Shown piece after piece: positions 24,481 to 45,631 of a stretch of DNA of 64,000 nucleotides. The DNA comes from an uncultured Gammaproteobacteria bacterium (GTDB lineage Bacteria > Pseudomonadota > Gammaproteobacteria > Steroidobacterales > MnTg04): assembly GCA_964568075.1 (NCBI GenBank), contig CAZMOM010000008.1, forward strand, positions 5,430 to 69,429, written 5' to 3'. Below the pieces are notes generated by a model. It made no database searches and was not told the DNA's origin. It saw only the letters and a program-made list of their open reading frames with translations. A program made the translations under genes and the position numbers. How positions within the stretch are numbered: position 1 is the first letter of the stretch; every line of letters begins with the position of its first letter.

Positions 24481-24824
24481 CGTCTTACAGTCAGCAAATC
24501 GGTCGATTGGAGGGGATCCCAGGGCCGGCATGGAGTCGGCAAATAGGATTCAAGGTTGACTATGGCGCAGTGGAGCAGCATTCTGTCGCGGAACAAGAAA
24601 GATAAGCGTGACGGTCGCCGTAGCGAGGGGAACCGTTACATCTGAAACCAACGCCGCAGGTGGATACCTGAAGCCTTATTGAGTATCAGAGAACCGCCTT
24701 CAAGGCCTCCCGTGATCGTCACAGTGAACCGCGATGCATCGCAACAGGTTTTGATTCGTTGGTTTTTCGTTGGTGTATGCACCGGGAGTCGACGGCGCAT
24801 TTTCGAAATGATGGGAGATTTGAG

Positions 24825-26090
24825 ATGATAATTAAACAATTCAAGAGTTCGGTCTTCGCGTTGACGGGAATGATTATCCTGCTTTTCACGTCGATTGATG
24901 CTCAGGCTTTCGAGTCAATGAAGATGGGCGATTGGGACGTCGACATCAGCGGCAATATTAACGCCTTTTTCACGAATATTGACTGCGATGCAAAAGGCAA
25001 CGGCGTTGTACAGTCCGGCCTGGCTTGCGGCTCATTAACGGGCTTTGACTACGATTCGGGAAATGTGCAGACGGGCTTATTGCCGTCCTGGTTCGGGTTC
25101 CACGCCAAGCAGGATTCCAAGGGCTATACCACGGAAATCACTATCGGCTTCCAACCGGGTGTCGACGGAGGGGGCGGCGCCATTGACACTGGCCTGGCCC
25201 TGAACTCGGAAAACCTGCGGCAGGTCAATCTCAAGTTCGGTGCCGACTGGGGCTCGATTATGCTCGGGCGCGATCTCGGCGTATTCGGTTCTGACGCGAT
25301 CCTTGCGGACATGACCTTGCTGGGTGTCGGCACTGTGTCCGACTTAGCTGTTTTTGGCGGTAATACGACACTGGGTCGGATCGGGGTCGGGTATGTATAC
25401 GCCGACTGGAAGGCCCAGATTCAGTACTCGTCACCCAGCTGGGACGGGTTTTCATTTAACCTTGCTATCGTTGACCCTTGGGGCCTCGTCGACCTGTCCG
25501 CCGCCGGCGGGCCCAGTCTGAGTCTCGATCAGGGTTCCTTCGGTCAGGACCCCGATACCTACGGTTTCGAAGGCAAAGCCGTCTATAAGTTCGGCGGCGA
25601 TGACGACTCCACGGTCAGCGGCAAGGTATGGGCCAGCTTTATCACCCAGGCATTGGATAGTTCGGCGTTCGCCAACCAGGACGCAACAGGATTTGATGTC
25701 GGAGCCAAAGTCGAACTTAACGACTTTGAACTCGTCGGGTATTACTACAGCGGGGACGGAATCGGCACCCTCGGCTTTCTATGGGACGCCGTAGATTTAA
25801 GTGGCAACACCCGCGATTCGGACGGTTTCTATGCGCAGGCAACTTACAAGGCACCGGGCTCGGGCACGAAGTTTGGCGTCAGCTTTGGCGAGAGCAATCT
25901 CGATCTCGCGCCGGGCGAAGCGGTCTCTGCCCTGGTAGAGACCAACGAGTCTTTCGTCATAGGCGTGTATCATCCGTTGACCCCAGCGCTGAACCTCGTA
26001 CTCGAGTACACGAATACGGAAGCGACAGCGCACAACGGTAATAGCGCAGAAGAAAGCACCATCGCCATCGGCGCCATCCTGTTCTACTAG
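24825..26090 (+). CDS. Outer-membrane porin (Gram-negative general porin type)
   Basis: Signal peptide (IDAQA-FE), alternating beta-strand pattern, Gly/Asp-rich loops, and a C-terminal aromatic residue (AILFY). Confidence 0.75.
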   Translation: MIIKQFKSSVFALTGMIILLFTSIDAQAFESMKMGDWDVDISGNINAFFTNIDCDAKGNGVVQSGLACGSLTGFDYDSGNVQTGLLPSWFGFHAKQDSKGYTTEITIGFQPGVDGGGGAIDTGLALNSENLRQVNLKFGADWGSIMLGRDLGVFGSDAILADMTLLGVGTVSDLAVFGGNTTLGRIGVGYVYADWKAQIQYSSPSWDGFSFNLAIVDPWGLVDLSAAGGPSLSLDQGSFGQDPDTYGFEGKAVYKFGGDDDSTVSGKVWASFITQALDSSAFANQDATGFDVGAKVELNDFELVGYYYSGDGIGTLGFLWDAVDLSGNTRDSDGFYAQATYKAPGSGTKFGVSFGESNLDLAPGEAVSALVETNESFVIGVYHPLTPALNLVLEYTNTEATAHNGNSAEESTIAIGAILFY

Positions 26091-26128
26091 TCGGGGCGGC
26101 GTTTACAAGGCGAAATAACGGTACGGGG

Positions 26129-26155
26129 CGGCGCCTTTGGGCGCCGTCTTCGTCC
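26129..26155 (+). terminator. Possible terminator after the porin gene
   Basis: CGGCGCC-TTTG-GGCGCCG hairpin followed by TCTTCGT, a weak U-tract. Confidence 0.35.
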
Positions 26156-26237
26156 CGCAGGCCTGCTTGTGATTAAGTGCCACGCGCGCGGGAAATTCAA
26201 AGTGCAAAACCGAAAACTCCAGTTGCTGCAATGTTCC

Positions 26238-27170
26238 ATGCCACGACCCGGGCAGGTCGCAGGGCTGCTGGTGGGATATCTTTGCGCTGTCCTTGCCTGC
26301 CTGCCGAGCGCTTATGCGGCTTCGAATTCGGTCATCTGGGAGCGCGGCGATCAGATCGTTAAACTGGTGCGGCAGGACGATCACTCGGCGGCACCGAACG
26401 ACCATCCGATTGGCATAACAGCCGACGAAATCGTAGCGATGCTTAAAATGCTGCGCTTGCGTTACGCCGATGAAGAGACCGACGTCACCGCGGTGTCGGT
26501 ATTCACAAAGGGGGAGATAGATAACCTCGGTAAGGCAATCGCAATCGGGCTCGGCCGCGCTACGCCGTCGCAGGACGTCATTTTTCATGTGATCGGTGCC
26601 CGCCGGCTGTCTCCAGGAGCGTTTGCAAAAAGGAACCGGGTATCTGCCGGACGCGTTTTCTATCGGGGCGGAAATCTCAATATTATTTTCGGTCAGGTCC
26701 AGTCACCGTATCGTAAGAAAAACGTGTATGGCCAGCTCGCTGAAGATTATTTTCCGCGCAACTACGGCAGCCGGACGGCGGCGGCAAAACACGATGCCGT
26801 CTTGTTGCCAAATGCGACGGCCAGTCTGTATCAAAGCGGTGGCGATGTGCGTGATGACTGGATTGTCATAGCGCTGAATGCCGCTGTCGTCGGTGACCTG
26901 CCGGACGACAAACCTGATCCGGCGCCCACACCAACTCGTGCAACCTCTGCTGCTCCGGCTGTGCTTGCGGAAACGCCGGAGGTACCATCACCACCCGCAA
27001 TCAAAAGTAACGAAATTGCAACCGGGCAACTCGAAGGAACGAGCGCCCAAGCAGCGCCGACAGCGGACATGGAGGAGCGCTTGCAAGCGTTGAAGCGGTT
27101 GCGCGAGCGCGAGCTCATCTCTGAGGATGCGTACCAATCCAAAATGACAGAGATTTTGCAGGATCTCTAG
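26238..27170 (+). CDS. Secreted protein with a Pro/Ala-rich linker and C-terminal SHOCT domain
   Basis: Signal peptide (LACLPSAYA-AS), a domain of unknown function of about 200 aa, a low-complexity linker, then RLQALKRLRERELISEDAYQSKMTEIL, which matches the SHOCT pattern. Confidence 0.6.
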   Translation: MPRPGQVAGLLVGYLCAVLACLPSAYAASNSVIWERGDQIVKLVRQDDHSAAPNDHPIGITADEIVAMLKMLRLRYADEETDVTAVSVFTKGEIDNLGKAIAIGLGRATPSQDVIFHVIGARRLSPGAFAKRNRVSAGRVFYRGGNLNIIFGQVQSPYRKKNVYGQLAEDYFPRNYGSRTAAAKHDAVLLPNATASLYQSGGDVRDDWIVIALNAAVVGDLPDDKPDPAPTPTRATSAAPAVLAETPEVPSPPAIKSNEIATGQLEGTSAQAAPTADMEERLQALKRLRERELISEDAYQSKMTEILQDL

Positions 27171-27317
27171 CCCGGCCTATTCATGAATCGTCGCGATGAT
27201 TGTGCAGAGCATTGTTTGCACACGGGATTTTCTGACCGAGTGGAATATCCCTGTATATTTCCGAGGGAAGAAAATCCCGTGTGCGGACAAGGATCAAGCA
27301 AGGGCGCGAGCGCATTC

Positions 27318-28109
27318 ATGAATAGTCCGGGCAGGGAGAGTCGGACGAGGTTCTGCCTCGTGCTTTGCGCAATTTTATTGCCAGCTGATTATGTGCGAGC
27401 CGAGGTAACGAATATCACCGTGCGCGTCATTGCGCGAAACGCACAGTATGTCGGTGACCTTGTCGAAGGCGCGTTCGTGACGATCACGGACGCCGCGAGC
27501 GGCGAGCTGCTGGCGCAGGGGATTACCACCGGAGATGCCGGTAATCCGCAACGCACGATGCGGACTCCGCGCAACCGCGGCGAGCCGATGGCTGCCAAAG
27601 GCGATGCGAAATTTGCCGCAACTTTGGATATCGACGAGCCGCGTTATCTACAGATAACCGTCTATGGCCCACTGGACAAGCGATTTATCGCGAATCGGGC
27701 TTCGGCGACCCAGTGGATTGTGCCGGGGAAACACGTAACCGGTGGCGATGGTTGGGTGTTGGAATTGGCGGGTTTGCTGGTATCGCCGAACCTTGCGGCG
27801 AGCACCGTTCCGCTGTCAACAGCGGCGAGCGGTATAGTCATCGAAGCTGAAGTGATGTTGATGTGCGGTTGCCCGATCAAACCGGGATTCTACTGGGACC
27901 CAAAAGACTACGAAGTGGTCGCGATCGTACGCCGGGGCGATCAGGACGTGGGTCGGTATCCACTCCGCTATGCCGGCGCTGCCAGCGAATTTGCAACACA
28001 ATTCACAGCGCGCATTCCGGGAGTTTATGACATCAGCGTATACGCTTATGATTCAGCGTCCGGGAATACCGGTGTGGGACAAATCGAACTAACTGTGACT
28101 GAAAATTGA
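27318..28109 (+). CDS. Hypothetical secreted protein
   Basis: Signal peptide (FCLVLCAILLPADYVRA-EV). No recognised domain. Lies 10-150 nt downstream of the SHOCT gene on the same strand. Confidence 0.5.
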   Translation: MNSPGRESRTRFCLVLCAILLPADYVRAEVTNITVRVIARNAQYVGDLVEGAFVTITDAASGELLAQGITTGDAGNPQRTMRTPRNRGEPMAAKGDAKFAATLDIDEPRYLQITVYGPLDKRFIANRASATQWIVPGKHVTGGDGWVLELAGLLVSPNLAASTVPLSTAASGIVIEAEVMLMCGCPIKPGFYWDPKDYEVVAIVRRGDQDVGRYPLRYAGAASEFATQFTARIPGVYDISVYAYDSASGNTGVGQIELTVTEN

Positions 28110-31580: not shown

Positions 31581-32627
31581 ATGAAGCAATTCCAAACACT
31601 CGAAAACTACCTGCAAACACAAGTAGCGGACGATGACATTCGATCGGCCGTTGCCACAACCATTCTTTGCATCGCCGCAGCAGCCATAAGAATCAAAAAC
31701 CTCGTGGCTCGAGGCCCACTGGCCGGCCGGTTGGATGCGGCCCGCGGCGACAACACGGACGGTGATGCCCAGAAAGAGCTGGATTTGATCGCCAACGATT
31801 ATATTATTGAAGCTCTGCAAAGCGCACCGATCGCATACCTGGTTTCGGAAGAACTGGATCAACCGGTGCTACTACATAAAGCTGCGCCGTTGTTAGTGAC
31901 AATTGACCCGCTGGACGGGTCCTCCAATATCGAGACCAACGCCGCCGTCGGCACGATCTTCTCGATATTGCCAGCAGTCGGTTCTGAAAAAGACCTGACC
32001 GACGATGCCGTTCTGCAGGCCGGTGTCAATCAACTGGCCGCCGGCTACTGCATCTATGGACCGCAAACTTCGCTCGTACTGACACTCGGCGCCGGTACGC
32101 ACATTTTTACACTGGACCCGGTGCAGGGTGAGTTTCATTTGACCACGCCCAATGCACAGATCGCGGAAACGACACGGGAGTTTGCGATCAATGTGTCGAA
32201 TTTCCGACATTGGGACCAACACATTCGCGCCTACATCGATGACTGCCTGGATGGTGAGGACGGCTTGCGAAAGAGCAACTACAACATGCGCTGGGTTGCA
32301 TCGCTGGTCGCAGAGTGTCATCGAATTCTGTCCCGTGGCGGCATCTTCCTGTATCCCGGCGACGCCCGCAAAGGCTATGCACAGGGTCGATTACGTCTTC
32401 TTTACGAATGCAACCCGGTAGCGTTCCTGATCGAACAGGCCGGCGGCGGCGCGACAACCGGACACCAGCGAATTCTGGATCTGAAACCCGAAAAAGTACA
32501 TCAGCGGGCACCGATGATCTTTGGCTCGCGCCGCGAGATTAGACGCGTTGAGCGCTACTACGCCGAATGTGACAGGACGGGCGAGAGATCGCCGTTGTTC
32601 AACAAGCGTGGACTGTTTCGCGTCTGA
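31581..32627 (+). CDS. cbbF: Class 1 fructose-1,6-bisphosphatase (Calvin-cycle FBPase/SBPase)
   Basis: DPLDGSSNIETNAAVGTIFSI, MRWVASLVAECHRIL, GGIFLYPGD; GAGG upstream of the ATG. Confidence 0.92.
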   Translation: MKQFQTLENYLQTQVADDDIRSAVATTILCIAAAAIRIKNLVARGPLAGRLDAARGDNTDGDAQKELDLIANDYIIEALQSAPIAYLVSEELDQPVLLHKAAPLLVTIDPLDGSSNIETNAAVGTIFSILPAVGSEKDLTDDAVLQAGVNQLAAGYCIYGPQTSLVLTLGAGTHIFTLDPVQGEFHLTTPNAQIAETTREFAINVSNFRHWDQHIRAYIDDCLDGEDGLRKSNYNMRWVASLVAECHRILSRGGIFLYPGDARKGYAQGRLRLLYECNPVAFLIEQAGGGATTGHQRILDLKPEKVHQRAPMIFGSRREIRRVERYYAECDRTGERSPLFNKRGLFRV

Positions 32628-32653
32628 AGGCGAAAGGACCGGGGTATAAAAAC

Positions 32654-33529
32654 ATGTCAATCGCTCATCCCATCATTTCAGTCACAGGCTCATCGGGCGC
32701 CGGTACCACATCGGTCAAGCTCACATTTGATCAGATATTCCGGCGCGAGGGCGTCAGCGCCGCTTTTGTCGAGGGTGATGCGTTCCATCGCTACGACCGT
32801 GCCGAGATGAAACAGGTTATGTCCGACGAGGCCGCCAAAGGCAACAATCACTTCAGCCACTTCGGCCCCGAGGCAAATCTGTTTGACAAACTCGAGGCGG
32901 TATTTCGCGATTTCGGTGAGACCGGTAGCGGAAAAACGCGGCACTACGTGCACGATGCCGACGAGGTCGAGCTCTATGGCGCGGATCCTGGAACGTTCAC
33001 AGACTGGGAGGATACGCCGGAAGGCGCCGATCTCCTCTTCTATGAAGGCTTGCATGGCGCGGTGGTCACTGACGCAGTCGATGTCGCGCAGTATGCCGAT
33101 GTCAAGATCGGCATCGTGCCGGTCATCAATCTTGAGTGGATTCAGAAACTGCACCGGGACAAAACGGAACGCGGCTATTCGTACGAGGCCGTTATGGACA
33201 CCATTCTGCGCCGCATGCCCGACTACATTCACTTCATAACCCCGCAGTTCAGTCGGACCGATATCAATTTTCAGCGTATTCCGACTGTCGATACGTCGAA
33301 TCCGGAGATCGCGCGCTTGATTCCGACACCGGACGAATCGATGGTTGTGATTCGCTTTCGGAATCCACACGGCATCGACTTTCCCTATCTACTGGCCATG
33401 ATCCACGACAGCTTCATGTCTCGTTCCAATTCCATCGTCATTCCCGGCAATAAACTGGATCTCGCGCTGCAACTGATTCTGACGCCGATGATCATGCAGC
33501 TCATCGAACGAAAAAGACGCGCGGTCTAA
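32654..33529 (+). CDS. cbbP: Phosphoribulokinase
   Basis: HPIISVTGSSGAGTTSV P-loop, EGDAFHRYDR, NLEWIQKLHRDK; about 290 aa, the bacterial PRK type. Confidence 0.93.
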   Translation: MSIAHPIISVTGSSGAGTTSVKLTFDQIFRREGVSAAFVEGDAFHRYDRAEMKQVMSDEAAKGNNHFSHFGPEANLFDKLEAVFRDFGETGSGKTRHYVHDADEVELYGADPGTFTDWEDTPEGADLLFYEGLHGAVVTDAVDVAQYADVKIGIVPVINLEWIQKLHRDKTERGYSYEAVMDTILRRMPDYIHFITPQFSRTDINFQRIPTVDTSNPEIARLIPTPDESMVVIRFRNPHGIDFPYLLAMIHDSFMSRSNSIVIPGNKLDLALQLILTPMIMQLIERKRRAV

Positions 33530-33544
33530 CAAGAGGAATTTTTC

Positions 33545-35572
33545 ATGAATGCAATTGCACAGGAATCCATGGCCGGCAGCGCCGTGTCCCAAAAGGCCAT
33601 GGCAAACGCGATTCGTTTCCTGGCCGCGGATGCGGTGCAACGTGCGAATTCAGGCCATCCCGGCATGCCAATGGGCATGGCGGATGTCGCGACGGTCCTG
33701 TTTACACGATTCCTCAAGTTCAATCCTGATGATCCGGACTGGCAGGATCGCGACCGGTTTGTACTTTCAGCCGGTCATGGGTCAATGCTGTTGTATTCGC
33801 TGTTGCATCTCACCGGATATCGGGCGGTGTCTATGGAAGAGATCAAGAACTTTCGCCAGATTGGCAGCGTAACGGCGGGACACCCCGAGTTCGGTCACGC
33901 GCCGGGCATCGAAACCACCACTGGTCCGCTGGGGCAAGGCATTACAACCGCAGTGGGCATGGCGCTGGCCGAGCGGATGCAGCAGGCACGATTCGGGGAC
34001 GACCTCGTCGACCATTACACTTATGTCATTGTCGGCGATGGTTGCCTGATGGAGGGCATCAGTCATGAGGCCATTTCGCTTGCCGGTCATCTTCGTCTTT
34101 CGCGGCTGATCGTTTTGTGGGACGACAACTCCATCAGTATCGACGGCTCGACCGACCTGTCTGTTTCGGACGACCAGTTAGCCCGATTCAAGGCGTCGGG
34201 CTGGCAGGTTGCTTCTGTCGACGGGCACGACCATGCAGCTATCGCCAATGCAATCGAAAATGCCCGCAAAGATAACCGCCCGTCATTCATTGCCTGCAGC
34301 ACGGTGATCGGATTTGGTGCGCCGAATAAAGCCGGTACAGCCGCCACTCATGGGGCTCCGCTCGGTGAAGATGAACTGGCAGCGAGCCGGGTGAATCTAA
34401 ACTGGCCGTATGCCCCGTTCGCCATACCGGATGATATCCAATTCGCGTGGCGCGCAGCCGGCACACGCAGTGCAGCTAGCTATGGTGATTGGCAGGAGCG
34501 TCTTGCTACCGCCAACGAGGAAAAGCGCCGTGAATTTCTCCGCACCACTGCAGGTGATTTGCCTGCCGGTTGGCAGGACGACATCAACGCATTCAAAAAG
34601 CGGCTTGCCGAAGAGCAGCCGACAATGGCAACCCGTAAAGCCTCGGGTGAAACGCTGAATATCCTGACTGCATCCATACCAGAATTGATCGGCGGATCCG
34701 CCGACCTAACAGGATCAGTCAACACCAAAACACCGCATACGGACCCGGTCACGGCGAACGACTTCAGCGGACGTTACCTGCATTACGGCGTTCGCGAGCA
34801 CGCCATGGCAGCGGTGATGAACGGCATCGCTTTGCACGGAGGCTTCATTCCCTACGGTGGCACGTTCCTGATCTTCGTCGATTATATGCGCGCTGCAATG
34901 CGCCTGTCGGCACTCACGCGACAGCGCGTCATCTATGTCTTGACTCACGATTCCATAGGCCTCGGTGAAGACGGACCGACGCATCAACCGGTAGAAACCC
35001 TGGCCATGTTGCGGGCGACGCCTAACTTCAATGTTTACCGGCCGGCAGATGCGACGGAAACCGCGGAATGCTGGGCGCTGGCATTACAGGACAGGAACAC
35101 GCCCTCGGGCCTCGCCCTGAGCCGACAGGGCTTACCCGCGCTGCGCACTGTGTATACCGATGATAACCTCTGCGCCCGCGGCGCTTACGTTCTGGCGGAG
35201 ACCGACAACGGTGAGCGCGAGGTAACCATCATGGCGACAGGCTCCGAAGTCAGCATCGCGATGGCTGCCAGAGACATCCTGCAAAGCGAAGGTATCGGCA
35301 CGGCTGTCGTTTCCATGCCGTGCTGGGAGCTATTCGAGAAACAGGATGCCACCTACAAGGACGAGGTGCTCGGGCCGGGGACCGTCGCCATTGGCCTCGA
35401 AGCGGCGGTCGGCTTCGGCTGGGACCGGTACATAGGCACTCGCGGCTGCTTTGTCGGCATGCAGGGTTTCGGCGCCTCGGCACCAGCAGCTGACCTATAC
35501 GAATACTTCGGCATAACAGCGGCTGCTGTTGTCGAGGCGGCAAAGACTTACCTGACAAGCGAAGACCGATAA
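33545..35572 (+). CDS. cbbT: Transketolase
   Basis: [71 protein letters not shown]. Confidence 0.95.
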
Positions 35573-35722
35573 CGAGAGGAAATCGACACGGCGGGACGTC
35601 AGTCAAAGAGCAAAGTTATTTCGTTGCCGCAGATGGTCGAACGGTACAAAAGCGGTGATTTAGAGCCGCAAACCGACCAAAGCCGGGTAGCGGCAGCATA
35701 GATTGAAAGAGGAGACAAGACG

Positions 35723-37102
35723 ATGGATCAATCCGATCGATATGCAGACCTGTCACTAGGTGAACAGGATCTGATTGCAGGCGGACAACATGTGTTGTGC
35801 GCCTACATTATGAAACCGAAAGCCGGTTACGAGTATCTAGCGACCGCTGCTCACTTTGCCGCAGAATCTTCAACCGGCACAAATGTGTCCGTCTCGACAA
35901 CGGATGATTTTACGCGCGGGGTCGATGCGCTCGTTTACGAAATCGACGAAGCGAACGAAGTCACGAAGATTGCCTACCCGGTGGAGTTGTTCGATCGGAA
36001 TATCATTGACGGACGAGCCATGATCGCCTCGTTCCTCACATTGACCATTGGCAACAACCAGGGCATGGGAGATGTCGAATACGCGAAGATGCACGACTTC
36101 TATATGCCGCATGACTTTCTGCGTCTTTTTGACGGACCATCGACGACGATATCCGATCTGTGGCGCGTGCTGGGCCGCCCGGTGGTTGACGGTGGCTTCA
36201 TCGTCGGGACCATAGTCAAACCCAAACTCGGTCTGCGGCCGGAACCGTTCGCGGAGGCGGCGCACCAGTTCTGGCTGGGCGGTGACTTTATCAAGAACGA
36301 TGAGCCGCAGGGCAACCAGCTCTTTGCACCGTTGAAAAAGACGATTTCGCTGGTTGCCGACGCAATGCGCCGGGCACAAGACGAGACCGGAGAAGCAAAA
36401 CTGTTTTCAGCAAACATCACCGCAGACGATCATTACGAAATGGTGGCCCGCGGTGAGTACATTCTCGAAACGTTTGCAGAAAACGCCGATCATGTGGCGT
36501 TCCTTGTTGACGGTTACGTCGCGGGCCCCGCAGCCATTACCACAGCACGGCGACGCTTCCCGAAGCAGTATCTGCACTATCATCGCGCTGGCCACGGCGC
36601 GGTAACGTCACCACAGTCAATGCGGGGATACACGGCATTCGTGCTCTCGAAGATGGCTCGCTTGCAGGGTGCTTCCGGTATTCATACCGGCACCATGAGC
36701 TTCGGCAAGATGGAAGGCGAAGCCAGCGACACCGACATGGCCTACATGATTCAAAGAGACAGCGCGGATGGTCCGTTCTATCACCAGGAATGGCTTGGTA
36801 TGAACCCAACCACACCGATCATCTCCGGCGGCATGAATGCGCTGCGCATGCCTGGATTCTTCACCAACCTTGGTCATTCGAATCTTATATTGACCGCCGG
36901 TGGTGGCAGCTATGGACATATCGACGGTCCCGCGGCCGGCGCCCGGTCCCTGCGACAGGCTGAACAGTGCTGGAAGGAAGGCGCCGATCCTGTTGCTTTC
37001 GCCAAAGAACATCATGAATTCGCCCGCGCTTTCGAGAGTTTCCCGAGCGATGCGGATCAGCTATTCCCGAATTGGCGTCAACAGCTGGGGCACGCCGCGT
37101 AG
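35723..37102 (+). CDS. cbbM: RuBisCO form II large subunit
   Basis: [12 protein letters not shown].., [49 protein letters not shown]; 459 aa with no small-subunit gene alongside. Confidence 0.95.
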
Positions 37103-37114
37103 CGGCCTGGCATC

Positions 37115-37795
37115 ATGAACGGCTACCCGGCGGCAATCATTTGGGATCTGGACGGAACGCTGATCGATTCCGCAGCGGATCTCGCTCAGACACTGAATAC
37201 GCTGTTGCGCGAGCATGGTTGCGCGGGTCTCGAGGAGCATCAGGTCCGGACCATGATCGGCGACGGGGTCGCGAAACTGATCGAACTAGGATTCAGGGCT
37301 GCCGGCGTTACAATATGCGGACCGCAATTGCAGAATATGATCCCGCGCTTCATGCTGCTCTATTCGGTACGCGCAACAAACAAAACCCGTCTTTATCCCG
37401 GGGCCCGATCGGTATTGCAGCACTTTTCCGATTCCGGCGTACGACAAGGTATATGCACCAATAAACCCGAAGATATCACTAGGCAGATTCTTTCGAACCT
37501 CTCGGTTTCCGACCACTTCGACATCGTGGTCGGTGGCGACACCGTCGCCGCGAAAAAACCGGATCCGCTCCCGCTTCGATCCTGCCTTGAGGCGCTGGAC
37601 GTAAAACCACGAAAATGCGTAATGATCGGCGACTCAGCCGTCGATGTAGCGACCGCGCGCGCGATAAATATGCCTGTCGGCGTGGTCAGTTATGGTTACG
37701 CCCGTAGAGCCGCCAGGACCCTCGGTGCGGACTTCGTAATCGACAAATTATCCTCGTTGCCGGCGTCCATCGGCGAGCTGCAAAAAGCAGGTTAG
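37115..37795 (+). CDS. cbbZ: Phosphoglycolate phosphatase (HAD family)
   Basis: IIWDLDGTLIDS motif I, CTNKP motif II, GDSAVDVATARA motif IV. Sits after cbbM, the usual position. Confidence 0.88.
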   Translation: MNGYPAAIIWDLDGTLIDSAADLAQTLNTLLREHGCAGLEEHQVRTMIGDGVAKLIELGFRAAGVTICGPQLQNMIPRFMLLYSVRATNKTRLYPGARSVLQHFSDSGVRQGICTNKPEDITRQILSNLSVSDHFDIVVGGDTVAAKKPDPLPLRSCLEALDVKPRKCVMIGDSAVDVATARAINMPVGVVSYGYARRAARTLGADFVIDKLSSLPASIGELQKAG

Positions 37796-37800
37796 AAACA

Positions 37801-38550
37801 ATCATATTTAAAGCAATTATTTTTGATGTCGACGGTACTCTCGCCGAAACCGAGGAGATTCATCGCGCGGCCTTCAATCAGGCCTTTAAAATATATGGCT
37901 TGCCCTGGCACTGGGATTGGTTGGCTTATCGACAATTACTCAAAGTAACCGGCGGCAAAGAGCGTATCCGTCTTTTTATCAGGCAGCATAAATCGGACTG
38001 CCCGCAGATGGCTGATATCGAGGGCTTTATTCGCGACATCCACAAAACGAAAACAGAAATATATACGCAAATGATCACGAGCGGCGAAGCGGAATTCCGT
38101 CCCGGTATCAGGCAGTTGATAAGAAAGGCAATCGAAGACGAAACGCGACTGGCGATTGCCACGACCACCAGTGCACCCAATGTGGATGCCTTATTGCGAT
38201 CTGAATTCGGCAGCGAAGGCCCCGGGATTTTTGAAGTGATTTGTACCGCCGACAGTGTAGCGAAGAAAAAACCAGCGCCTGATGTCTATCTTCTGACACT
38301 GGAAATGCTGGGCCTTCCAGCGGATGCCTGCGTGGCCATCGAGGACTCCCGCAATGGCCTATTGTCATCATCCGGCGCCGGTATTCCAACTGTTGTTACG
38401 CCCAGCGTATACACCAACGACGACAGTTTCGACGAAGCCATACTGGTAACAGACGAACTCAGTGACGTCGATTTCAGGGCAGTTTTCGCAGACACGCGAA
38501 ACGAAATTGCGGCAGAGAGCACTGCAGAGGACGTGTTTCTACAGCAATAA
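37801..38550 (+). CDS. cbbY: CbbY-type HAD phosphatase (xylulose-1,5-bisphosphate phosphatase-like); apparent non-canonical ATC/ATA start
   Basis: The in-frame translation from 37801 reads IIFKAIIFDVDGTLAETEEIHRAAFNQAF, the CbbY N-terminus including catalytic motif I. The first ATG/GTG/TTG in this frame is TTG 37900, downstream of that motif. Confidence 0.8.
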   Translation: MIFKAIIFDVDGTLAETEEIHRAAFNQAFKIYGLPWHWDWLAYRQLLKVTGGKERIRLFIRQHKSDCPQMADIEGFIRDIHKTKTEIYTQMITSGEAEFRPGIRQLIRKAIEDETRLAIATTTSAPNVDALLRSEFGSEGPGIFEVICTADSVAKKKPAPDVYLLTLEMLGLPADACVAIEDSRNGLLSSSGAGIPTVVTPSVYTNDDSFDEAILVTDELSDVDFRAVFADTRNEIAAESTAEDVFLQQ

Positions 38551-39196: not shown

Positions 39197-39689
39197 ATGG
39201 TTTTTCTCCCTTTTTATCAATTGATGGACCATTCTTATGGCCGGTTGTGAAGCGATCATTGCTTTTTGCTACCGCCCAAACAGGCACCAAAACACCAGCA
39301 GTCAACGCCAGCCCAGCTGCCAGTCTACTTCTTATCTGAATCATTGATTTTACTCCCATGCCGGGGGGCTGTTCACGACTTGTCCGGGGAAGCGAGGACC
39401 CGTGGCTTCCCGTCTCCGTCTTTAGGCGGGTTCGCCTTTTTGTTGTTACCTCTTAACCATAGTTGAGAATTGGTAGATTGCCAGTCAGTTAACCCAATCG
39501 GGCAATATCCGCGCCCCGATAATGTCTGAACCGCCCCGGGTATTCCGGAGACTCCATTTTTTGCGAGGATGATTTATAAACACAGCAAAACGAAATTCCC
39601 CGGAAGTACGGGAGCGAGCGGTTCGGATGGTGCCGGACCCATGTCGGCAAGGCACTTGGCAGCTTATACATGCTAAAATCGCTGCAAAT

Positions 39690-42065
39690 ATGCATAACAG
39701 CGAATCGGGCCATCGGAACAGTGTCAGCATGCCGCCTCCTCTAGCATCAGTCGCTCTTATCGGCTCGTACCTGCCGAGACAGTGTGGTATCGCCACGTTT
39801 ACGACTGATCTTGCCACCGCGATTGTCGACAACGATCCAAACATTGACTGCACTATCGTAGCCATGAATGATCGGCGTGAGGGGTACGAGTATCCGGAAG
39901 CGGTCAAATTTCAGATCAGCCAGGACAAACTGAATGAATACCGTCGCGCTGCCGATTTCCTGAACCTGCGTGATCCGGATGTGGTTTGTCTGCAACACGA
40001 ATACGGAATATTCGGTGGTCAACGCGGCAGCTTCATTATCGAACTCGCCCGGAACTTGAAAAGCCCCTTGATAACCACCTTGCACACAATATTGAGAAAT
40101 CCATCAGCAGAGGAACGGACGATCATCAAGCAGTTATCGGAACTGTCCTATCGATTCGTGGTCATGAGTGAGCGCGGTGCCGATTTTCTTAGAGATATAT
40201 ATCAAGTTCCAGCGAGCAAGATAGCGCTCATCCATCATGGAATTCCCGATGTGCCTTTTCTGGACCCGGATCCGTGTAAGAGCAAGGTCGCTGCAGACGA
40301 CAAAATCGTGATCCTGACATTTGGCCTGCTCTCGCCCGGCAAGGGTATCGAGTTTATGATTGATGCCTTGCCGAACATCGTCAGCTCACATCCGGAAGTG
40401 CTCTATTTCGTGGTTGGCGCCACTCATCCAAACTGCAGGACCGAAAGTGGCGAGGCCTATCGCCTGAGTTTGCACCGCCGGGCAAAGGAACTGGGCGTGG
40501 CCGACAACATTGTGTTCCATGATCGATTCTTGGAGCGAGATGAATTGCTTGAGATCATTCGGGCTGCCGATATCTATGTCACCCCGTACCTGAATGAGGC
40601 TCAGATTGTATCCGGAACGCTCGCCTACGCGGTGGGAGCTGGAAAAGCCGTCGTCTCCACCCCGTATTGGCATGCAAAGGAGATGTTGGCTGATGGTCGA
40701 GGCAGGCTCGTACCATTTAAAGATCACATGGCTTTGGCGCACGAGATAAATCAACTTCTGGACTTTCCAGAGGAGCGACTCAAGATGCGCCGTGCAGCTT
40801 ACGAATATTCCCGACCCATGGTGATGAGGGAGATGGGCCGCCGGTATCTGGAATTGTTTTTACAAGCCAAGACGCAACATACGCGTATAGGCGACCTGCC
40901 GGTACTCGATACGCTGAGTCAGCGCGATCAGCGACTGCCGCAGATCAATTTGAAGCATCTCCGCCATATGACAGATCACACCGGCATACTCCAGCACGCG
41001 AAATTCACGGTTCCAAACCGCGCCCACGGCTACTGTGTCGACGACAATGCTCGGGCACTCATCGTTGTTACCAGAGCGCATGATCTGGATAGAACCGATA
41101 CCTCACTGACGGAATTGTCTTCCATTTATCTCAGTTTTCTGGATGATGCTTTCGATTCGGAAACCGGGCGATTTCACAATTTCATGTCGTACGATCGTAA
41201 ATGGCTGGACACCATTGGATCGGAGGATTCTCACGGCCGCGCGTTGTGGGCGCTGGGCACGATGGCAGGCTGGGGCCAAAATTCAGGTCAAGTCGCGCTC
41301 GCCACTAAACTCTTCCACGATGCGCTGCCGGCACTGGAAAACTTTTCGGATTCGCGTGCCATAGCATTCCCTATCCTTGGGATTCAAGCGTACCTCCGCC
41401 GGCACGACGACGATCACCAAGTCCGCGAGCTGATCAAATCGCTGGGCGAGACACTCTGGACCCGCTTCAGACAGCACGCCACCAAAGACTGGCAATGGTA
41501 CGAATCGATACTGACCTACGACAATGCACGCCTGCCCGAAGCATTGATGGTCTGTGGTCGCGTTACCAACGATGATGACATGGTGAAGACCGGTATCGAG
41601 GTACTCGAATGGTTGAGAGGCATTCAGCTCGATTCATCAGGCGAGTGGTTTGCACCGGTGGGTAATCAGGGTTGGTTCCACGAATCCGGCAGCAAGGCGC
41701 AATACGATCAACAGCCCCTCGAAGCAGCCGCCATGATCGGCGCCTGTATTGAAGCCTACGAATGTACGCAGCACGAGGAATGGGTTCAACTGGCATCGGT
41801 CTGCTTCAACTGGTATCTGGGTAAGAATGATCAACAAACCCAACTTTATGATCATACCAGTGGTGGATGCCGCGACGGGCTCACACGCGACGGGGCCAAT
41901 GAGAATCAGGGTGCGGAGTCAACACTGTCGTACCTGGCCTCCTTACTCGCCATTTATAATCTCCGCGGATTGACAGCGAACCATCGGGACGTTAAGAAGC
42001 CGGCGTTGGAAAAATATCTCGCGGAAAACACTAAGACGCAGCTCAAGTCTGCGGGTGCTCCTTAA
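39690..42065 (+). CDS. Bifunctional-looking GT4 glycosyltransferase fused to a C-terminal six-hairpin (alpha/alpha)6 glycosidase-like domain
   Basis: N-terminal GT-B/GT4 part (VALIGSYLPRQCGIATFTTDL, LQHEYGIFGG, E-x7-E region YVTPYLNEAQIVSGTLAYAVGAGKAVVSTP). The C-terminal part of about 400 aa has YDNARLPEAL and NENQGAESTLSYL. Start could be 39690 or 39729. Confidence 0.75.
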   Translation: MHNSESGHRNSVSMPPPLASVALIGSYLPRQCGIATFTTDLATAIVDNDPNIDCTIVAMNDRREGYEYPEAVKFQISQDKLNEYRRAADFLNLRDPDVVCLQHEYGIFGGQRGSFIIELARNLKSPLITTLHTILRNPSAEERTIIKQLSELSYRFVVMSERGADFLRDIYQVPASKIALIHHGIPDVPFLDPDPCKSKVAADDKIVILTFGLLSPGKGIEFMIDALPNIVSSHPEVLYFVVGATHPNCRTESGEAYRLSLHRRAKELGVADNIVFHDRFLERDELLEIIRAADIYVTPYLNEAQIVSGTLAYAVGAGKAVVSTPYWHAKEMLADGRGRLVPFKDHMALAHEINQLLDFPEERLKMRRAAYEYSRPMVMREMGRRYLELFLQAKTQHTRIGDLPVLDTLSQRDQRLPQINLKHLRHMTDHTGILQHAKFTVPNRAHGYCVDDNARALIVVTRAHDLDRTDTSLTELSSIYLSFLDDAFDSETGRFHNFMSYDRKWLDTIGSEDSHGRALWALGTMAGWGQNSGQVALATKLFHDALPALENFSDSRAIAFPILGIQAYLRRHDDDHQVRELIKSLGETLWTRFRQHATKDWQWYESILTYDNARLPEALMVCGRVTNDDDMVKTGIEVLEWLRGIQLDSSGEWFAPVGNQGWFHESGSKAQYDQQPLEAAAMIGACIEAYECTQHEEWVQLASVCFNWYLGKNDQQTQLYDHTSGGCRDGLTRDGANENQGAESTLSYLASLLAIYNLRGLTANHRDVKKPALEKYLAENTKTQLKSAGAP

Positions 42066-43527
42066 GACGGCGTAACAATTCGGGAATCGAAACGGTGGCA
42101 ACTCTGCAGCGTTGATCAGCAATGCCATAAGGGACAATCAACGCGTCCCCATGACTCATACTTCCGCAAGAATAGACCACATTGGGCACATAGCCGTCCC
42201 GCTCATGCTCATCAGGTGTCAGTATCGGTTCGTCTAGCCGGCCGATGACCTTGGACGGATCGTCAATGTCCAGCAGCTCGGCCCACATGCTGTATTTCCG
42301 CATCGGTCCGACACCATGGAAAAGCGCGAGCCATCCCTCGGACGTTTCCACCGGCGAGCCACAGTTGCCAACCTGAACGAACTCCAGCGGATGAACGGGC
42401 TCCTGAAGGAGCTCTGCCTCGTTCCAGAAACGAAGGCTGTCCGAGAACATGATGTAGTTATTAACGCCGTCCTGGCGTGACAACATCGCGTACTGTCCAT
42501 TGATCTTCCTGGGAAACAACGCCATACCCTTATTCTGTGCGGCTTTGCCACTGAGTGTGTGCATCTTGAAGGTCAGGAAGTCGGTAGTCTCGAGAATCTG
42601 CGGCAGTATGTCAAAACCATTGTATGCGGTATAAGTGGCATAGTAGACGACTGATTTATCATCATCCTCGAAACGCACAAACCGAGCATCCTCGATGCCT
42701 GCGCTCTCGTTTTCCGACACCGGAAAGATCACTCTCTCAGAGATCTGTGAATCAGGGCGGAATATCACTTCGTAATTGGACCGAGCCAGCCACATCGCCG
42801 TATCAATCGCGTGGTGTTTGTCCCTCAGTCGAAACTTGGTCGAGCGGAGATTGCGTATTTGTGTTTCCAGCTCATCAAACGTAAACGTCTCGTCTAATCC
42901 TTCCAACAGGTGATTCGTGAGCCGGTCGCGTACTCCCATCTCTTCGAGTTTTCGTCGAAAATGAAGACGGTGGTAAACGGGGTCTGTGTGCGTCTCAGGC
43001 GTGGCAACGTATTGGCTGATGGGATCGAAATAGATGTCCTGGTTTTCGTCAACGATTCCGCTACGAAATTCGATCGAGGACAGATGACCTTCGCCGGTCG
43101 CTCTGAAGCTCATGACGAATCGCTTCGATCCCTTGTCCACGCCTTTCTGATCGGGGTGCGGAACGATAGAAGGATTAAAGAACGCGGCTGCCTCAACTGA
43201 ATACTCTGCGGTAAAGTAGGCACCAAGCAAAAGCCGTTGCTCGGACGACAACGAGAGACGTTTCGGGACATGTTCTGCAATACGATTAAAGTTTCTCTCC
43301 AGGACCTCTCGAAAGTTCCGGTGGCGCCCTGAGAAGTCCTGGAATACAGCCTCCAGCAAGTGATGGACGTCTTCGTCGCTCAGCTTTGCGACGCGTTCGA
43401 TCAGGCTCTTGCTGCGTGCCTTGTCTCCTGGAATATGCGGCCGGGTAATAACGCGTGAGCTCTCGGCGTTCAGCAACGTTGACCGCCGTTTGACCAGTTG
43501 CTCGCGTTTTTCGCCAACTCCCATCAA
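42043..43527 (-). CDS. GH130-family glycoside phosphorylase-like protein with an N-terminal extension of about 200 aa
   Basis: C-terminal beta-propeller part (EDARFVRFEDDDKSVVYYATYTAYNG, KGMALFPRKINGQYAML, GWLALFHGVG, YVPNVVYSCG). No signal peptide. The 3' end overlaps the convergent GT4 gene by 23 nt. Confidence 0.75.
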   Translation of the reverse strand: MMGVGEKREQLVKRRSTLLNAESSRVITRPHIPGDKARSKSLIERVAKLSDEDVHHLLEAVFQDFSGRHRNFREVLERNFNRIAEHVPKRLSLSSEQRLLLGAYFTAEYSVEAAAFFNPSIVPHPDQKGVDKGSKRFVMSFRATGEGHLSSIEFRSGIVDENQDIYFDPISQYVATPETHTDPVYHRLHFRRKLEEMGVRDRLTNHLLEGLDETFTFDELETQIRNLRSTKFRLRDKHHAIDTAMWLARSNYEVIFRPDSQISERVIFPVSENESAGIEDARFVRFEDDDKSVVYYATYTAYNGFDILPQILETTDFLTFKMHTLSGKAAQNKGMALFPRKINGQYAMLSRQDGVNNYIMFSDSLRFWNEAELLQEPVHPLEFVQVGNCGSPVETSEGWLALFHGVGPMRKYSMWAELLDIDDPSKVIGRLDEPILTPDEHERDGYVPNVVYSCGSMSHGDALIVPYGIADQRCRVATVSIPELLRRLKEHPQT

Positions 43528-43665
43528 TTGATTGCGCCCCGATTTAAATTGACTAACAATGGTCCTGGGTAAGTGGCCCGGGTTCAGACGGTGCGGATTA
43601 TAGCCGCGAAGGCCGCCAGAAGCATGTATTACAATTCACACTTCTGAGAATCACGAGTTTTGAGC

Positions 43666-44700
43666 ATGTCTTTGCGTATCGCAGTCCTCAGCCCCATTTC
43701 ATGGCGAACCCCTCCTCGCCATTACGGACCATGGGAGTCCGTCGTGAGCCTGCTCACGGAAGAACTCGTACGAATGGGCCTGGATGTGACTCTTTTCGCC
43801 ACCGGGGATTCGAAAACCAGTGGCAAGCTGGTCGCTGTGTGTCCGCGCCCGTATTCGGAGGACCCCTCAGTGAATCCAAAGGTCGCCGAATGCCTGCACA
43901 TTTCGGAGGTTTTCGAGCGTGCTGCCGAATTCGATCTCATTCATAATCACTATGACTTTCTACCGCTCACATATTCCGCGCTCGTTGATACACCGGTGTT
44001 GACTACGATCCACGGTTTCTCATCGCCGTCCATCATCCCGGTCTACAGAAAATATCATGCTCGAAACCACTACGTAGCGATCAGCGAGGCAGATAAGTCC
44101 TCAGAACTCGACTACATAGCCACCATCCATCATGGTATTGATATTGCGCAATTTCCCTTTTATGAAGCTGCGGGAGAGTATCTGTTGTTTTTTGGTCGGA
44201 TCCATGCGGATAAGGGCGTGCACGAAGCGATTCAAGTGGCACAGCGCGTCGGAATAAAGTTGGTGATTGCCGGCATCATTCAGGATCAGGATTACTTCGC
44301 CACCCGAGTGGAGCCTCATATCGACGGAACAACTGTAGAGTATCTGGGTTCTGTGGGGCCTGACCGAAAAGCGGAAGTGCTGGGACGCGCACTGGCACTA
44401 TTGCATTTAATAAACTTCGAGGAGCCTTTCGGATTAAGCATGGTTGAATCACTGGCGTGCGGGACGCCTGTCATCGCGTTTACTCGTGGGTCAATTCCAG
44501 AGATTATCCGACACGGTGAAACCGGCTATATCGTCGAGGATATTGAACATGCGGTGAACGCGGTCGCTGCGATAAAATCGATCGACAGGTCCGCTTGTCG
44601 GGAGGACGTTGAGCAGCGCTTCTCACACACACGCATGGCACGCGACTACGTTGGCGTGTACCGAAAGATCATAAATCCAGGAGCAGGCGATGATCGATAA
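43666..44700 (+). CDS. GT4 glycosyltransferase
   Basis: MSLRIAVLSPISWRTPPRHYGPWE (GT4 N-terminus), FFGRIHADKGVHEAI, FEEPFGLSMVESLACGTPVIAF (E-x7-E motif). Confidence 0.85.
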   Translation: MSLRIAVLSPISWRTPPRHYGPWESVVSLLTEELVRMGLDVTLFATGDSKTSGKLVAVCPRPYSEDPSVNPKVAECLHISEVFERAAEFDLIHNHYDFLPLTYSALVDTPVLTTIHGFSSPSIIPVYRKYHARNHYVAISEADKSSELDYIATIHHGIDIAQFPFYEAAGEYLLFFGRIHADKGVHEAIQVAQRVGIKLVIAGIIQDQDYFATRVEPHIDGTTVEYLGSVGPDRKAEVLGRALALLHLINFEEPFGLSMVESLACGTPVIAFTRGSIPEIIRHGETGYIVEDIEHAVNAVAAIKSIDRSACREDVEQRFSHTRMARDYVGVYRKIINPGAGDDR

Positions 44701-45631
44701 GCAGTTAGTGACGCGGTATAAAGGCAATCCAATCCTCACCAAGCACGACATCCCCTACGCCGTGGAGACGGTTCACAATGCAGGTGCCTGCAAGTTTGCG
44801 GACAAATATGTCTTGCTATTTCGCTCCCACCTGCGCAACGGGCGATCGATAATCGGCATCGCATGGAGCGATGATGGTTACGAGTTTCGCGCAGAACCCG
44901 CGCCATTAATGGTGCCAAGCACCGAAGGCGTTTTTGCGGTGCACGAGGAGTACGGGATCGAAGACCCGCGAATTTGCTCCATTGCCGGTGAGCATTATAT
45001 TACTTACAGCGCTTATTCCAGGTTTGGCGTGCGCATCGGTTTGGCGAAGACACGGGACTTCAAGACAGTCGAGAGAGTGTCGCTGATTAGTCAGGCAGAC
45101 ATGCGCAATGTCGTAATTTTCCCGGACACGTTCAACGGTCGTTACGCGCGGCTGGATCGGCCCCACTCGGAAATCAACCCCTGGTGCATCTGGCTATCCT
45201 GGTCTCCGGATCTGATTCACTGGGGTGATTCGGTGCCGGTGATCCAGCCTGTCCCTTATCATTGGGACCAAATGAAGATGGGCCCAGGTGCGACGCCTAT
45301 CAAGACGCCGAACGGGTGGCTTAGTATTTACCATGGCGTGTTTCCAACGATGGATGGTGCCGTGTATCGCCTGGGTGTGGCACTTCATGATCTTGCCAAC
45401 CCCGCCAAAGTACTCGGTGTTGCTGACGATTGGATACTGTCACCGGAGGATCCGTGGGAGTTAACCGGTTACGTCCACAATGTAGTTTTTACCTGTGGTG
45501 CAATCGCCGAGGACGATGGTACCGTGAAAATTTACTGGGGCGGCGCAGACAGCGTCATGTGTATCGGCGTCGCGAAGATCGACGACCTGGTTGATCTTTG
45601 TCTGAAAAAGACCCGACCGCCCTTGTTATGA
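44690..45631 (+). CDS. GH130-family glycoside phosphorylase (beta-mannoside phosphorylase-like)
   Basis: NPILTKHDIPY, NAGACKF.DKYVLLFR, IEDPRI, GWLSIYHGV, YVHNVVFTCG. Its ATG overlaps the stop of the upstream GT4 gene (ATGATCGATAA). Confidence 0.85.
   Translation: MIDKQLVTRYKGNPILTKHDIPYAVETVHNAGACKFADKYVLLFRSHLRNGRSIIGIAWSDDGYEFRAEPAPLMVPSTEGVFAVHEEYGIEDPRICSIAGEHYITYSAYSRFGVRIGLAKTRDFKTVERVSLISQADMRNVVIFPDTFNGRYARLDRPHSEINPWCIWLSWSPDLIHWGDSVPVIQPVPYHWDQMKMGPGATPIKTPNGWLSIYHGVFPTMDGAVYRLGVALHDLANPAKVLGVADDWILSPEDPWELTGYVHNVVFTCGAIAEDDGTVKIYWGGADSVMCIGVAKIDDLVDLCLKKTRPPLL

Follow-up and report, generated by a model that had tools for sequence, protein, structure and literature searches.

Organization of the gene cluster

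The sequence analyzed here, termed the window, is a stretch of 64,000 nucleotides (nt) from an uncultured gammaproteobacterium (GenBank assembly GCA_964568075.1, contig CAZMOM010000008.1, positions 5,430 to 69,429 of the forward strand). It carries a cluster of four genes, called A to D, that encode two GT4-type glycosyltransferases (A and C) and two proteins of the GH130 family (B and D). A preliminary description, made from the sequence alone, had reported these four genes together with overlaps of A with B and of C with D; the open reading frames (ORFs) and both overlaps are present (Table 1). B and D are the sole GH130 genes of this genome.

Homologs of A number more than 8000 and are typically 771 to 778 amino acids (aa) long. 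Because of this length, the start of A is likely the codon at 39729 (MPPPL). For C, the start codon may be TTG at 43660 or ATG at 43666. The overlap of A with B is missing from several other loci of Woeseiaceae. The earlier statement that none of the four proteins has a signal peptide is borne out by a crude hydropathy test, in which A, B, C, and D exhibit neither a hydrophobic N-terminus nor a membrane-type segment (maximum KD19 1.55).

Table 1. Genes, domains, overlaps, and intergenic region of the cluster (positions are those of the window; AF2, AlphaFold2; HMM, hidden Markov model)
Feature	Position	Strand	Description
Gene A	ORF 39627-42065, likely coding 39729..42065	+	778-aa atypical GT4 (GT-B) plus (alpha/alpha)6 barrel
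A GT-B domain	39729..40898	+	aa 1 to ~390; motifs PRxCGIATFT, QHEYG, TTLHT, GATHP
A (alpha/alpha)6 barrel	40953..41984	+	aa ~409-752; AF2, Foldseek, HMM
A/B convergent 3' overlap	42043..42065		23 nt
Gene B	42043..43527	-	494-aa GH130, predicted phosphorylase-type
B helical insert 2	42781..42969	-	aa 187-249; missing from Tardiphaga and Bradyrhizobium orthologs
B helical insert 1	43216..43422	-	aa 36-104, first-blade region; AF2 secondary structure, Foldseek
B-C divergent intergenic region	43528..43659		presumed site of both promoters
Gene C	43660..44700	+	346-aa GT4, glucosylsucrose-synthase (TeGSS) family
C/D overlap	44690..44700	+	11 nt, ATGATCGATAA; C stop inside D start
Gene D	44690..45631	+	313-aa GH130, predicted phosphorylase-type; translationally coupled to C

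B and D are predicted GH130 phosphorylases

Both GH130 proteins match the Pfam model of the family (PF04041, gathering cut-off 26 bits), B with 119 bits over aa 263-489 and D with 173 bits. D aligns with TM1225 from end to end (1e-54). B had been described as a GH130 protein with an N-terminal extension of about 200 aa and of unknown function. The family assignment holds, but the extension is not a separate unit. Although the N-terminal part of B has no Pfam match at E values up to 10, the AF2 model of the protein (predicted local distance difference test [pLDDT] 88.6, predicted template-modeling score 0.86) and Foldseek comparisons reveal one GH130 five-bladed beta-propeller with two helical inserts. 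The first blade (aa 106-181) contains the canonical residues Asn118 and Arg142, which are included in the conserved motifs FNPS and RATGEGHxSS..FR. The best structural matches of B are beta-1,2-oligomannan and beta-1,2-mannobiose phosphorylases, led by Teth514_1788 at 1e-20 (Protein Data Bank [PDB] 9GPH/9FJ8; template-modeling [TM] score 0.77), with an alignment of 384 columns over a target of 296 aa.

B and D were aligned with TM1225, Uhgb_MP, Teth514_1788, and Lin0857, using Uhgb_MP D104, R150, N151, R168, and H231 as reference positions. GH130 hydrolases carry carboxylates in place of the basic residues that bind phosphate, and the preliminary description had pointed to these residues as the feature that separates the two enzyme types. 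B has E279, the catalytic D280, K333 in the +1 subsite, R351, H404, and Y412, and its L2 loop is short like that of Teth514_1788. D has E91, the catalytic D92, R139-N140 in the +1 subsite, R157, H215, and Y226, and an L2 loop of intermediate length. Because the catalytic Asp is preserved in both proteins, as are the basic residues for phosphate binding (K333, R351, and H404 in B; R139, N140, R157, and H215 in D), both are predicted to be of the phosphorylase type.

A Glu rather than a Tyr before the catalytic Asp has been linked to β-1,2 or β-1,3, and not β-1,4, specificity (PMC12814180). For subfamilies GH130_4 and GH130_6, we took as the beta-1,2 pattern this Glu combined with a Lys in the +1 subsite (E136 and K184 of Uhgb_MS). 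B has both residues of this pattern (E279 and K333), whereas D combines E91 with Arg139-Asn140, as in beta-1,4 enzymes. An architecture consisting of the Glu-Asp motif, the Lys, and a short L2 loop is reported to leave space for GDP-mannose (GDP-Man) (PMC12814180). Neither protein belongs to the characterized mannobiose-phosphorylase groups represented by the NCBIfam equivalogs BtaManbiosPhlase and BManbPhaseBMBP, because their scores lie below the cut-offs of 550 and 450, respectively (218 and 188 for D; 151 and 143 for B).

C is a homolog of glucosylsucrose synthase

C matches Pfam Glycos_transf_1 with 85 bits, and it aligns over its full length with TeGSS (tll1591, PDB 7FG9; 302 bits, E 5e-89, ~45-50% identity). 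The catalytic residues of TeGSS are kept in C, where they correspond to W15, Y22, R180, K185, E255, and E263. TeGSS is a UDP-Glc α-1,2-glucosyltransferase that extends sucrose, and the resulting cytoplasmic oligosaccharides accumulate under salt and heat stress (PMC9909042).

A joins an atypical GT-B domain to a barrel of the YPO2471 family

The Pfam matches of A (Glycos_transf_1, 69 bits; Glyco_transf_4, 40 bits) are confined to aa 54-393, and the GT-B fold of this part is similar to MshA, PimB', and PimA (Foldseek, 1e-16 to 1e-14). At the sites of the EX7E and GRxxxxKG motifs, A reads LNEAQIVSGTLAYA and FGLLSPGKG, with only the Lys remaining. The same replacements of the EX7E residues and the Arg occur in an accessory GT4, called F3, which accompanies the cluster in some lineages.

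A had been read as a GT4 fused to a six-hairpin glycosidase-like domain, and AF2, Foldseek, and HMM comparisons agree that the C-terminal ~370 aa form an (alpha/alpha)6 barrel, although this region has no Pfam match even at E values up to 10. In the AF2 model, built from an alignment of 35 sequences (mean pLDDT 89.7), a short disordered linker connects the GT-B domain to the barrel. The sole relative of the barrel with a solved structure in these comparisons is YPO2471 of Yersinia pestis (PDB 7TEM), matched by Foldseek (1e-13, TM score 0.69-0.71) and by an HMM search against PDB (1e-20). When the whole A model is used as the query, 7TEM is the sole barrel match among the best 50 Foldseek matches, which are dominated by GT4 proteins. 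There is also a marginal HMM match of the barrel to GH76 α-mannanases (E 0.04). Its invariant residues include D438/D439 (GYxxDDNAR), D500, D716, and E730 (NQGAES), and these acidic positions suggest a catalytic site.

The YPO2471-like barrel family comprises 6649 clusters at 50% identity (E ≤ 1e-3), or 1994 at E ≤ 1e-30. Its members are fused to GT4 domains, stand alone, or are fused to a sugar oxidoreductase of the GFO/IDH/MocA type or to an α/β-hydrolase of the BD-FAE/esterase type (P0414, P0397). Because its partners vary, the barrel looks like a reusable carbohydrate-processing domain. A literature search found no paper on YPO2471.

The cluster is a conserved and mobile cassette

We surveyed the gene neighborhoods of 80 related loci, which represent more than 10 phyla as well as the archaeon Methanolobus. 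The bacterial loci include Woeseiaceae, to which the window itself likely belongs, Bradyrhizobiaceae, Desulfomonilaceae, Brocadiaceae, Chloroflexota, Planctomycetota, Acidobacteriota, Calditrichota, Omnitrophota, Bacteroidota, and Verrucomicrobiota. A GH130 gene is present in 63 of the 80, nearly always adjoining A, either in the long form of B or in a short form (d'). C is found in 31 loci, where D usually follows it. The association of A with GH130 is far above chance: 14 of 301 Pseudomonadota genomes carry the barrel, and 13 of these 14 have a GH130 gene, always within ~2.5 kb of A, compared with 13 of the 287 genomes that lack the A barrel (odds ratio 274, Fisher p 7e-15).

The order of the genes varies while the set recurs. 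On plasmid pILYOP02 of Ilyobacter polytropus, C-D-B-A form one operon that lies between an IS256/recombinase and a restriction system; the proteins are 59% (C), 67% (D), 53% (B), and 44% (A) identical to those of the window. The genes are contiguous as C-D-A-B in Calditrichota, as A-d'-C-D in a metagenome-assembled genome (MAG) of Pseudomonadota, and as A-F3-d'-C-D in Desulfomonilaceae. In many other loci the pair of A and GH130 occurs without C and D, and in Tardiphaga and Methanolobus C is located 6 kb from A or lacks D.

A is carried by 3 of the 41 genomes of the window's own order, and the flanking genes are entirely different among Woeseiaceae loci. Therefore, the four genes constitute an accessory cassette. 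Genes immediately beside the module in 10 further loci are likewise unrelated. The preliminary description had named conservation of the neighborhood as a way to examine its reading, and the outcome is a self-contained cassette with variable flanks. A was also detected on 29 plasmids, 17 of which are conjugative.

Several relatives differ from the window in other respects. Many Woeseiaceae loci (L016, L020, L021, L023, L024, L027, and L030) have a third GH130 gene, which lies immediately upstream of A in the opposite orientation. Its product is a second long B-type paralog (43-46% identical to B) that is missing from the window. In a MAG labeled Acidobacteriota (L026), A is 82% identical to that of the window and is split by an insertion of ~1.27 kb (L026:10022-11291), and a locus labeled Bacteroidetes (L017) has a copy of A with 80% identity. 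These copies suggest mis-binning or recent transfer.

Association with mannose supply and stress genes

ManC and phosphomannose isomerase (PMI) are encoded elsewhere in the genome of the window. In 12 of the 31 loci that include C (from Methanolobus, Desulfomonilaceae, and one Pseudomonadota MAG), a PMI cupin domain (PF01050) is fused to the C-terminus of C, and this fusion ties C to mannose metabolism. On plasmid p1 of Sphingobium xenophagum, the gene order is groL, ManC (GDP-mannose pyrophosphorylase/PMI), class I PMI, A, GH130, and phosphomannomutase (PMM). As judged from their predicted products, these genes supply a complete route from fructose-6-P to mannose-1-phosphate (Man-1-P) and GDP-Man around the A-GH130 pair, beside a chaperonin gene. 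HSP20 genes lie near the module in seven loci of four lineages, and in Fischerella HSP20 genes flank the cyanobacterial homolog of glucosylsucrose synthase (GSS).

Other genes were seen within single loci. A phosphoglucose-isomerase gene is located directly upstream of A in Brocadiaceae (L069:6436-7887), and a weak GH5-like gene is present between C and A in Bryobacterales (L038:6757-7944).

Flippase, polymerase, chain-length, initiating transferase, export, or transporter genes are absent from 77 of the 80 loci, and the window itself contains no flippase, polymerase, or transporter gene.

Proposed function and alternatives

We propose that genes A to D constitute a self-contained and horizontally mobile module of the cytoplasm that makes and phosphorolytically recycles an intracellular mannose-containing glycoside or short oligosaccharide, most likely a stress protectant and/or a carbon buffer. 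We assign this proposal a probability of roughly 60%. A build-and-recycle system inside the cell had been suggested before; it gains support, by inference from sequence and context, from the active-site residues of B and D, the self-contained cassette and its lack of flippase, polymerase, and transporter genes in the window and in 77 of the 80 loci, the similarity of C to TeGSS, the PMI fusion, the ManC-PMI-PMM operon beside groEL, and the recurrence of HSP20 genes in the vicinity. Likewise, the earlier remark that this arrangement is not a characterized pathway agrees with our literature searches, which found no description of the module.

From the same data we infer donors, acceptors, linkages, product identity, and role as follows. 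C, as a retaining α-1,2-glycosyltransferase of the TeGSS type, would add an alpha-linked hexose from a nucleoside diphosphate sugar to a primer. The GT-B domain of A would also add an alpha-linked hexose, probably mannose from GDP-Man. B and D, as inverting GH130 enzymes, would reversibly add or remove beta-mannosyl residues via alpha-Man-1-P and inorganic phosphate (Pi), and B, whose L2 loop is short, may be able to use GDP-Man as well. Chain length would be set by the hexose-phosphate/Pi state of the cell, and the barrel of A may trim, transglycosylate (rearrange), or bind the product. A retaining GT4 is unable to make the beta-mannosidic bond on which GH130 enzymes act; the GH130 proteins are therefore probably synthases as well as recyclers. 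The 1:1 pairing of GT4 and GH130 proteins noted in the preliminary description stands as the units A-B and C-D, but not as pairs in which the GT4 makes the bond that its GH130 partner cleaves.

A number of observations weigh against this proposal. For the reason just given, the pairing of synthase with recycler is indirect, and the structure of the product is guesswork. GH130 enzymes display only weak glycosyltransferase activity in vitro, and the physiological relevance of this activity is considered doubtful (PMC12814180). The linkage specificity of D is not predictable, because D pairs a Glu found in β-1,2/β-1,3 enzymes with an Arg-Asn found in beta-1,4 enzymes. In an alignment with C and TeGSS, the GT-B domain of A lacks both the EX7E Glu and the diphosphate-binding Arg of GRxxxxKG, and its donor may therefore not be a nucleotide sugar. 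The C orthologs of the module are only 43-45% identical to cyanobacterial GSS, versus 55-64% among themselves across phyla. Moreover, no sucrose-phosphate synthase is encoded in this genome, which is 97% complete (no TIGR02472 match above 27 bits); thus, sucrose cannot be the primer of C here. The enrichment of HSP20 genes is modest and was noticed post hoc. Finally, three Methanolobus loci (L075, L078, and L084) include a 515-aa Wzx/MurJ-like Polysacc_synt gene. It is bordered by A on one side and by a second short GH130 gene on the other, and no other export-type gene was seen inside the module in any lineage.

The last observation bears on the possibility that the GT4 proteins assemble, on the inner side of the membrane, a lipid- or protein-linked envelope glycan, which the GH130 proteins edit before export. 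Most GT4 proteins are annotated as functioning in cell wall biosynthesis, and there are weak matches to the NCBIfam models for exopolysaccharide (EPS) and PEP-CTERM glycosyltransferases. However, these scores are far under the cut-offs, the flanking genes are unrelated and variable, no initiating transferase, chain-length regulator, or other gene of an export pathway lies in the window or in 77 of the 80 loci, and none of the four proteins has a membrane segment. We consider an envelope function very improbable. Accordingly, the earlier view that the cluster is not part of a lipopolysaccharide or EPS locus applies to the window and to nearly all relatives, but not without qualification to Methanolobus.

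Salvage presents a different case, in which the module degrades beta-mannosides, either taken up from outside or released from endogenous glycans, Man-1-P is fed into GDP-mannose synthesis, and the GT4 proteins merely consume GDP-Man. The best-known role of GH130 enzymes is that of catabolic phosphorylases, and the Teth514_1785-1796 cluster of Thermoanaerobacter, for which salvage was proposed, likewise has a GT4, ManC, and two GH130 genes. The proximity of ManC and PMM to the A-GH130 pair on the Sphingobium plasmid, and the GH5-like gene between C and A in one locus, can be understood in the same manner. However, the presence of PMI and PMM, which derive mannose from fructose-6-P, argues for de novo synthesis rather than salvage, and C is homologous to a biosynthetic synthase of a stress sugar. 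The mobile cassette consists of synthases and phosphorylases only, and transporters, solute-binding proteins, and secreted glycanases are missing from the window and from the conserved core. Salvage therefore appears unlikely to us, although less so than an envelope role. Somewhat easier to entertain, but still improbable, is that two unrelated pairs are mere neighbors, with C making an alpha-glucan of the sucroglucan or kojioligosaccharide type and A-B handling a separate mannoside. This would account for loci that have A-GH130 without C and D, for the distance of C from A or its lack of D in Tardiphaga and Methanolobus, and for the fact that cyanobacterial GSS functions without any GH130. 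It is difficult to reconcile with the single C-D-B-A operon of the Ilyobacter plasmid, the contiguous arrangements in Calditrichota, Desulfomonilaceae, and the Pseudomonadota MAG, the translational coupling of C and D, and the PMI fusion that links C to mannose metabolism.

A more specific version of the proposed synthesis-and-recycling module is that the cassette is a prokaryotic counterpart of the mannogen system of Leishmania. Its product might then be an undescribed cytoplasmic hetero-oligosaccharide, with an alpha-linked primer and beta-1,2/1,3-mannosyl extensions, that serves as a protectant against heat, osmotic stress, and desiccation and as a hexose-phosphate buffer. By horizontal transfer, the cassette would have taken it into more than 10 phyla, into archaea, and onto conjugative plasmids. 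The barrel of A might represent a new glycoside hydrolase or transglycosylase family, and the GT-B domain of A, devoid of the EX7E motif, might depend on an uncommon donor; it could, for instance, be a retaining phosphorylase dependent on Man-1-P. We offer this combination as a speculative possibility that is rather doubtful as a whole. A relationship to the mannosylglucosylglycerate (MGG) pathway was also considered, with MggA/MggS taken to be GH130-like. It was dropped, because the paper on this pathway shows that MggA is a GT4 and that MGG is alpha,alpha-linked.

If the synthesis-and-recycling proposal is correct, a widespread mobile gene set makes an undescribed intracellular mannose sugar in organisms that include marine-sediment Woeseiaceae, rhizobia, sphingomonads, sulfate reducers, anammox bacteria, and methanogens. 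Such a sugar would be a new compatible solute or reserve carbohydrate for microbial stress physiology. The GH130 "synthase" activity would gain its first physiological role in prokaryotes, a matter left open by the authors of PMC12814180. The large barrel family to which PDB 7TEM belongs (about 6600 clusters) would also be assigned a function, as would an atypical subgroup of GT4 proteins. Cultured carriers with a plasmid-borne cassette make the proposal directly testable.

Flanking regions and candidate regulatory sequences

The upstream flank of the cassette (31581-38550) is a Calvin-cycle operon that encodes fructose-1,6-bisphosphatase (FBPase), phosphoribulokinase (PRK), transketolase, form II RuBisCO (459 aa), and two HAD phosphatases. 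Such an operon is consistent with a chemolithoautotrophic, Woeseiaceae-like gammaproteobacterium, and its adjacency to the cassette is not kept in relatives. A DUF1097 gene also lies upstream, and AhpC/TSA and MlaFED genes lie downstream. Redoxin/AhpC was considered as a partner of the module because it is present both here and in Calditrichota. However, the two proteins are unrelated and the pairing is not recurrent. Farther away, at 24759-28109, the plus strand carries a run of three ORFs (443, 333, and 308 aa) for which Pfam gives no match.

The ~100 nt ahead of the probable start of A (39627-39728) are conserved at the nucleotide level in a genome of the same genus (L002) and in L011. In L011 the reading frame of this segment holds a stop, and the similarity ends farther upstream. 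The conserved segment is probably the 5' leader or promoter of the cassette and marks its left edge. A scan for promoters and terminators gave counts not above those of shuffled sequence, and a consensus scan of the B-C intergenic region yielded no significant promoter. An exact 10-mer, GCGCCCCGAT, occurs upstream of A (39511-39522) and of C (43534-43545), and these are its sole two copies in the 64 kb. It was considered as a shared regulatory element and rejected: neither the same-genus genome nor 16 Woeseiaceae loci keep it, and it is therefore probably a chance occurrence.

Comparison with known systems

The cyclic beta-1,2-glucan synthase Cgs consists of a GT84 transferase, an (alpha/alpha)6 cyclase, and a GH94 phosphorylase, and its product is exported to the periplasm. 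The cassette is analogous in that a transferase and an (alpha/alpha)6 domain come together with an inverting phosphorylase, which would control chain length. However, the two systems differ in enzyme families, sugar, and product, such that the resemblance is one of analogy only.

YPO2471 shares the DDxAR and N(Q/S)GAEST motifs with the barrel of A. It is a stand-alone protein from structural genomics with the annotation of a putative exported protein, whereas in A the barrel is joined to a GT-B domain and lies in the cytoplasm. TeGSS/Alr1000 (PDB 7FG9; PMC9909042) is the closest comparison for C, in which W10, Y18, R179, K184, and the EX7E Glu of TeGSS are kept. However, the TeGSS gene adjoins that for sucrose-phosphate synthase, an enzyme that this genome lacks, and it has no GH130 partner. 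The C orthologs of the module form a closer group of their own, often fused to the PMI cupin.

In Leishmania, the mannogen cycle depends on GT108 mannosyltransferase/phosphorylases (Sernee 2019, as cited in PMC10913872 and PMC12814180). As far as these citing papers describe it, mannogen is a cytosolic beta-1,2-mannoside that serves as a reserve and stress carbohydrate, and it is made and phosphorolysed by five-bladed propellers related to GH130 with the use of GDP-Man and Man-1-P. The module may be similar in these respects. According to the same accounts, the enzymes are GT108 rather than GH130, there are no GT4 or barrel partners, and the system is eukaryotic; the likeness is thus functional only.

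Another close system is the Teth514_1785-1796 cluster of Thermoanaerobacter sp. X-514 (Chiku et al. 2014, PMC4264767; structures of Teth514_1788/1789 in PDB 9FJ8 and 7FIP). It includes an ABC importer and a GH5 enzyme, was read as a salvage cluster, and has neither a GT4 fused to a barrel nor a GT4 of the TeGSS type. B is only ~22-30% identical to Teth514_1788 and Teth514_1789 and carries its two helical inserts in addition. Nevertheless, these two proteins are the best matches of B in both sequence and fold, with the Glu-Asp motif, the Lys, and the short L2 loop in common, and there too a pair of cytoplasmic GH130 phosphorylases is encoded beside a GT4 and a mannose-1-phosphate guanylyltransferase.

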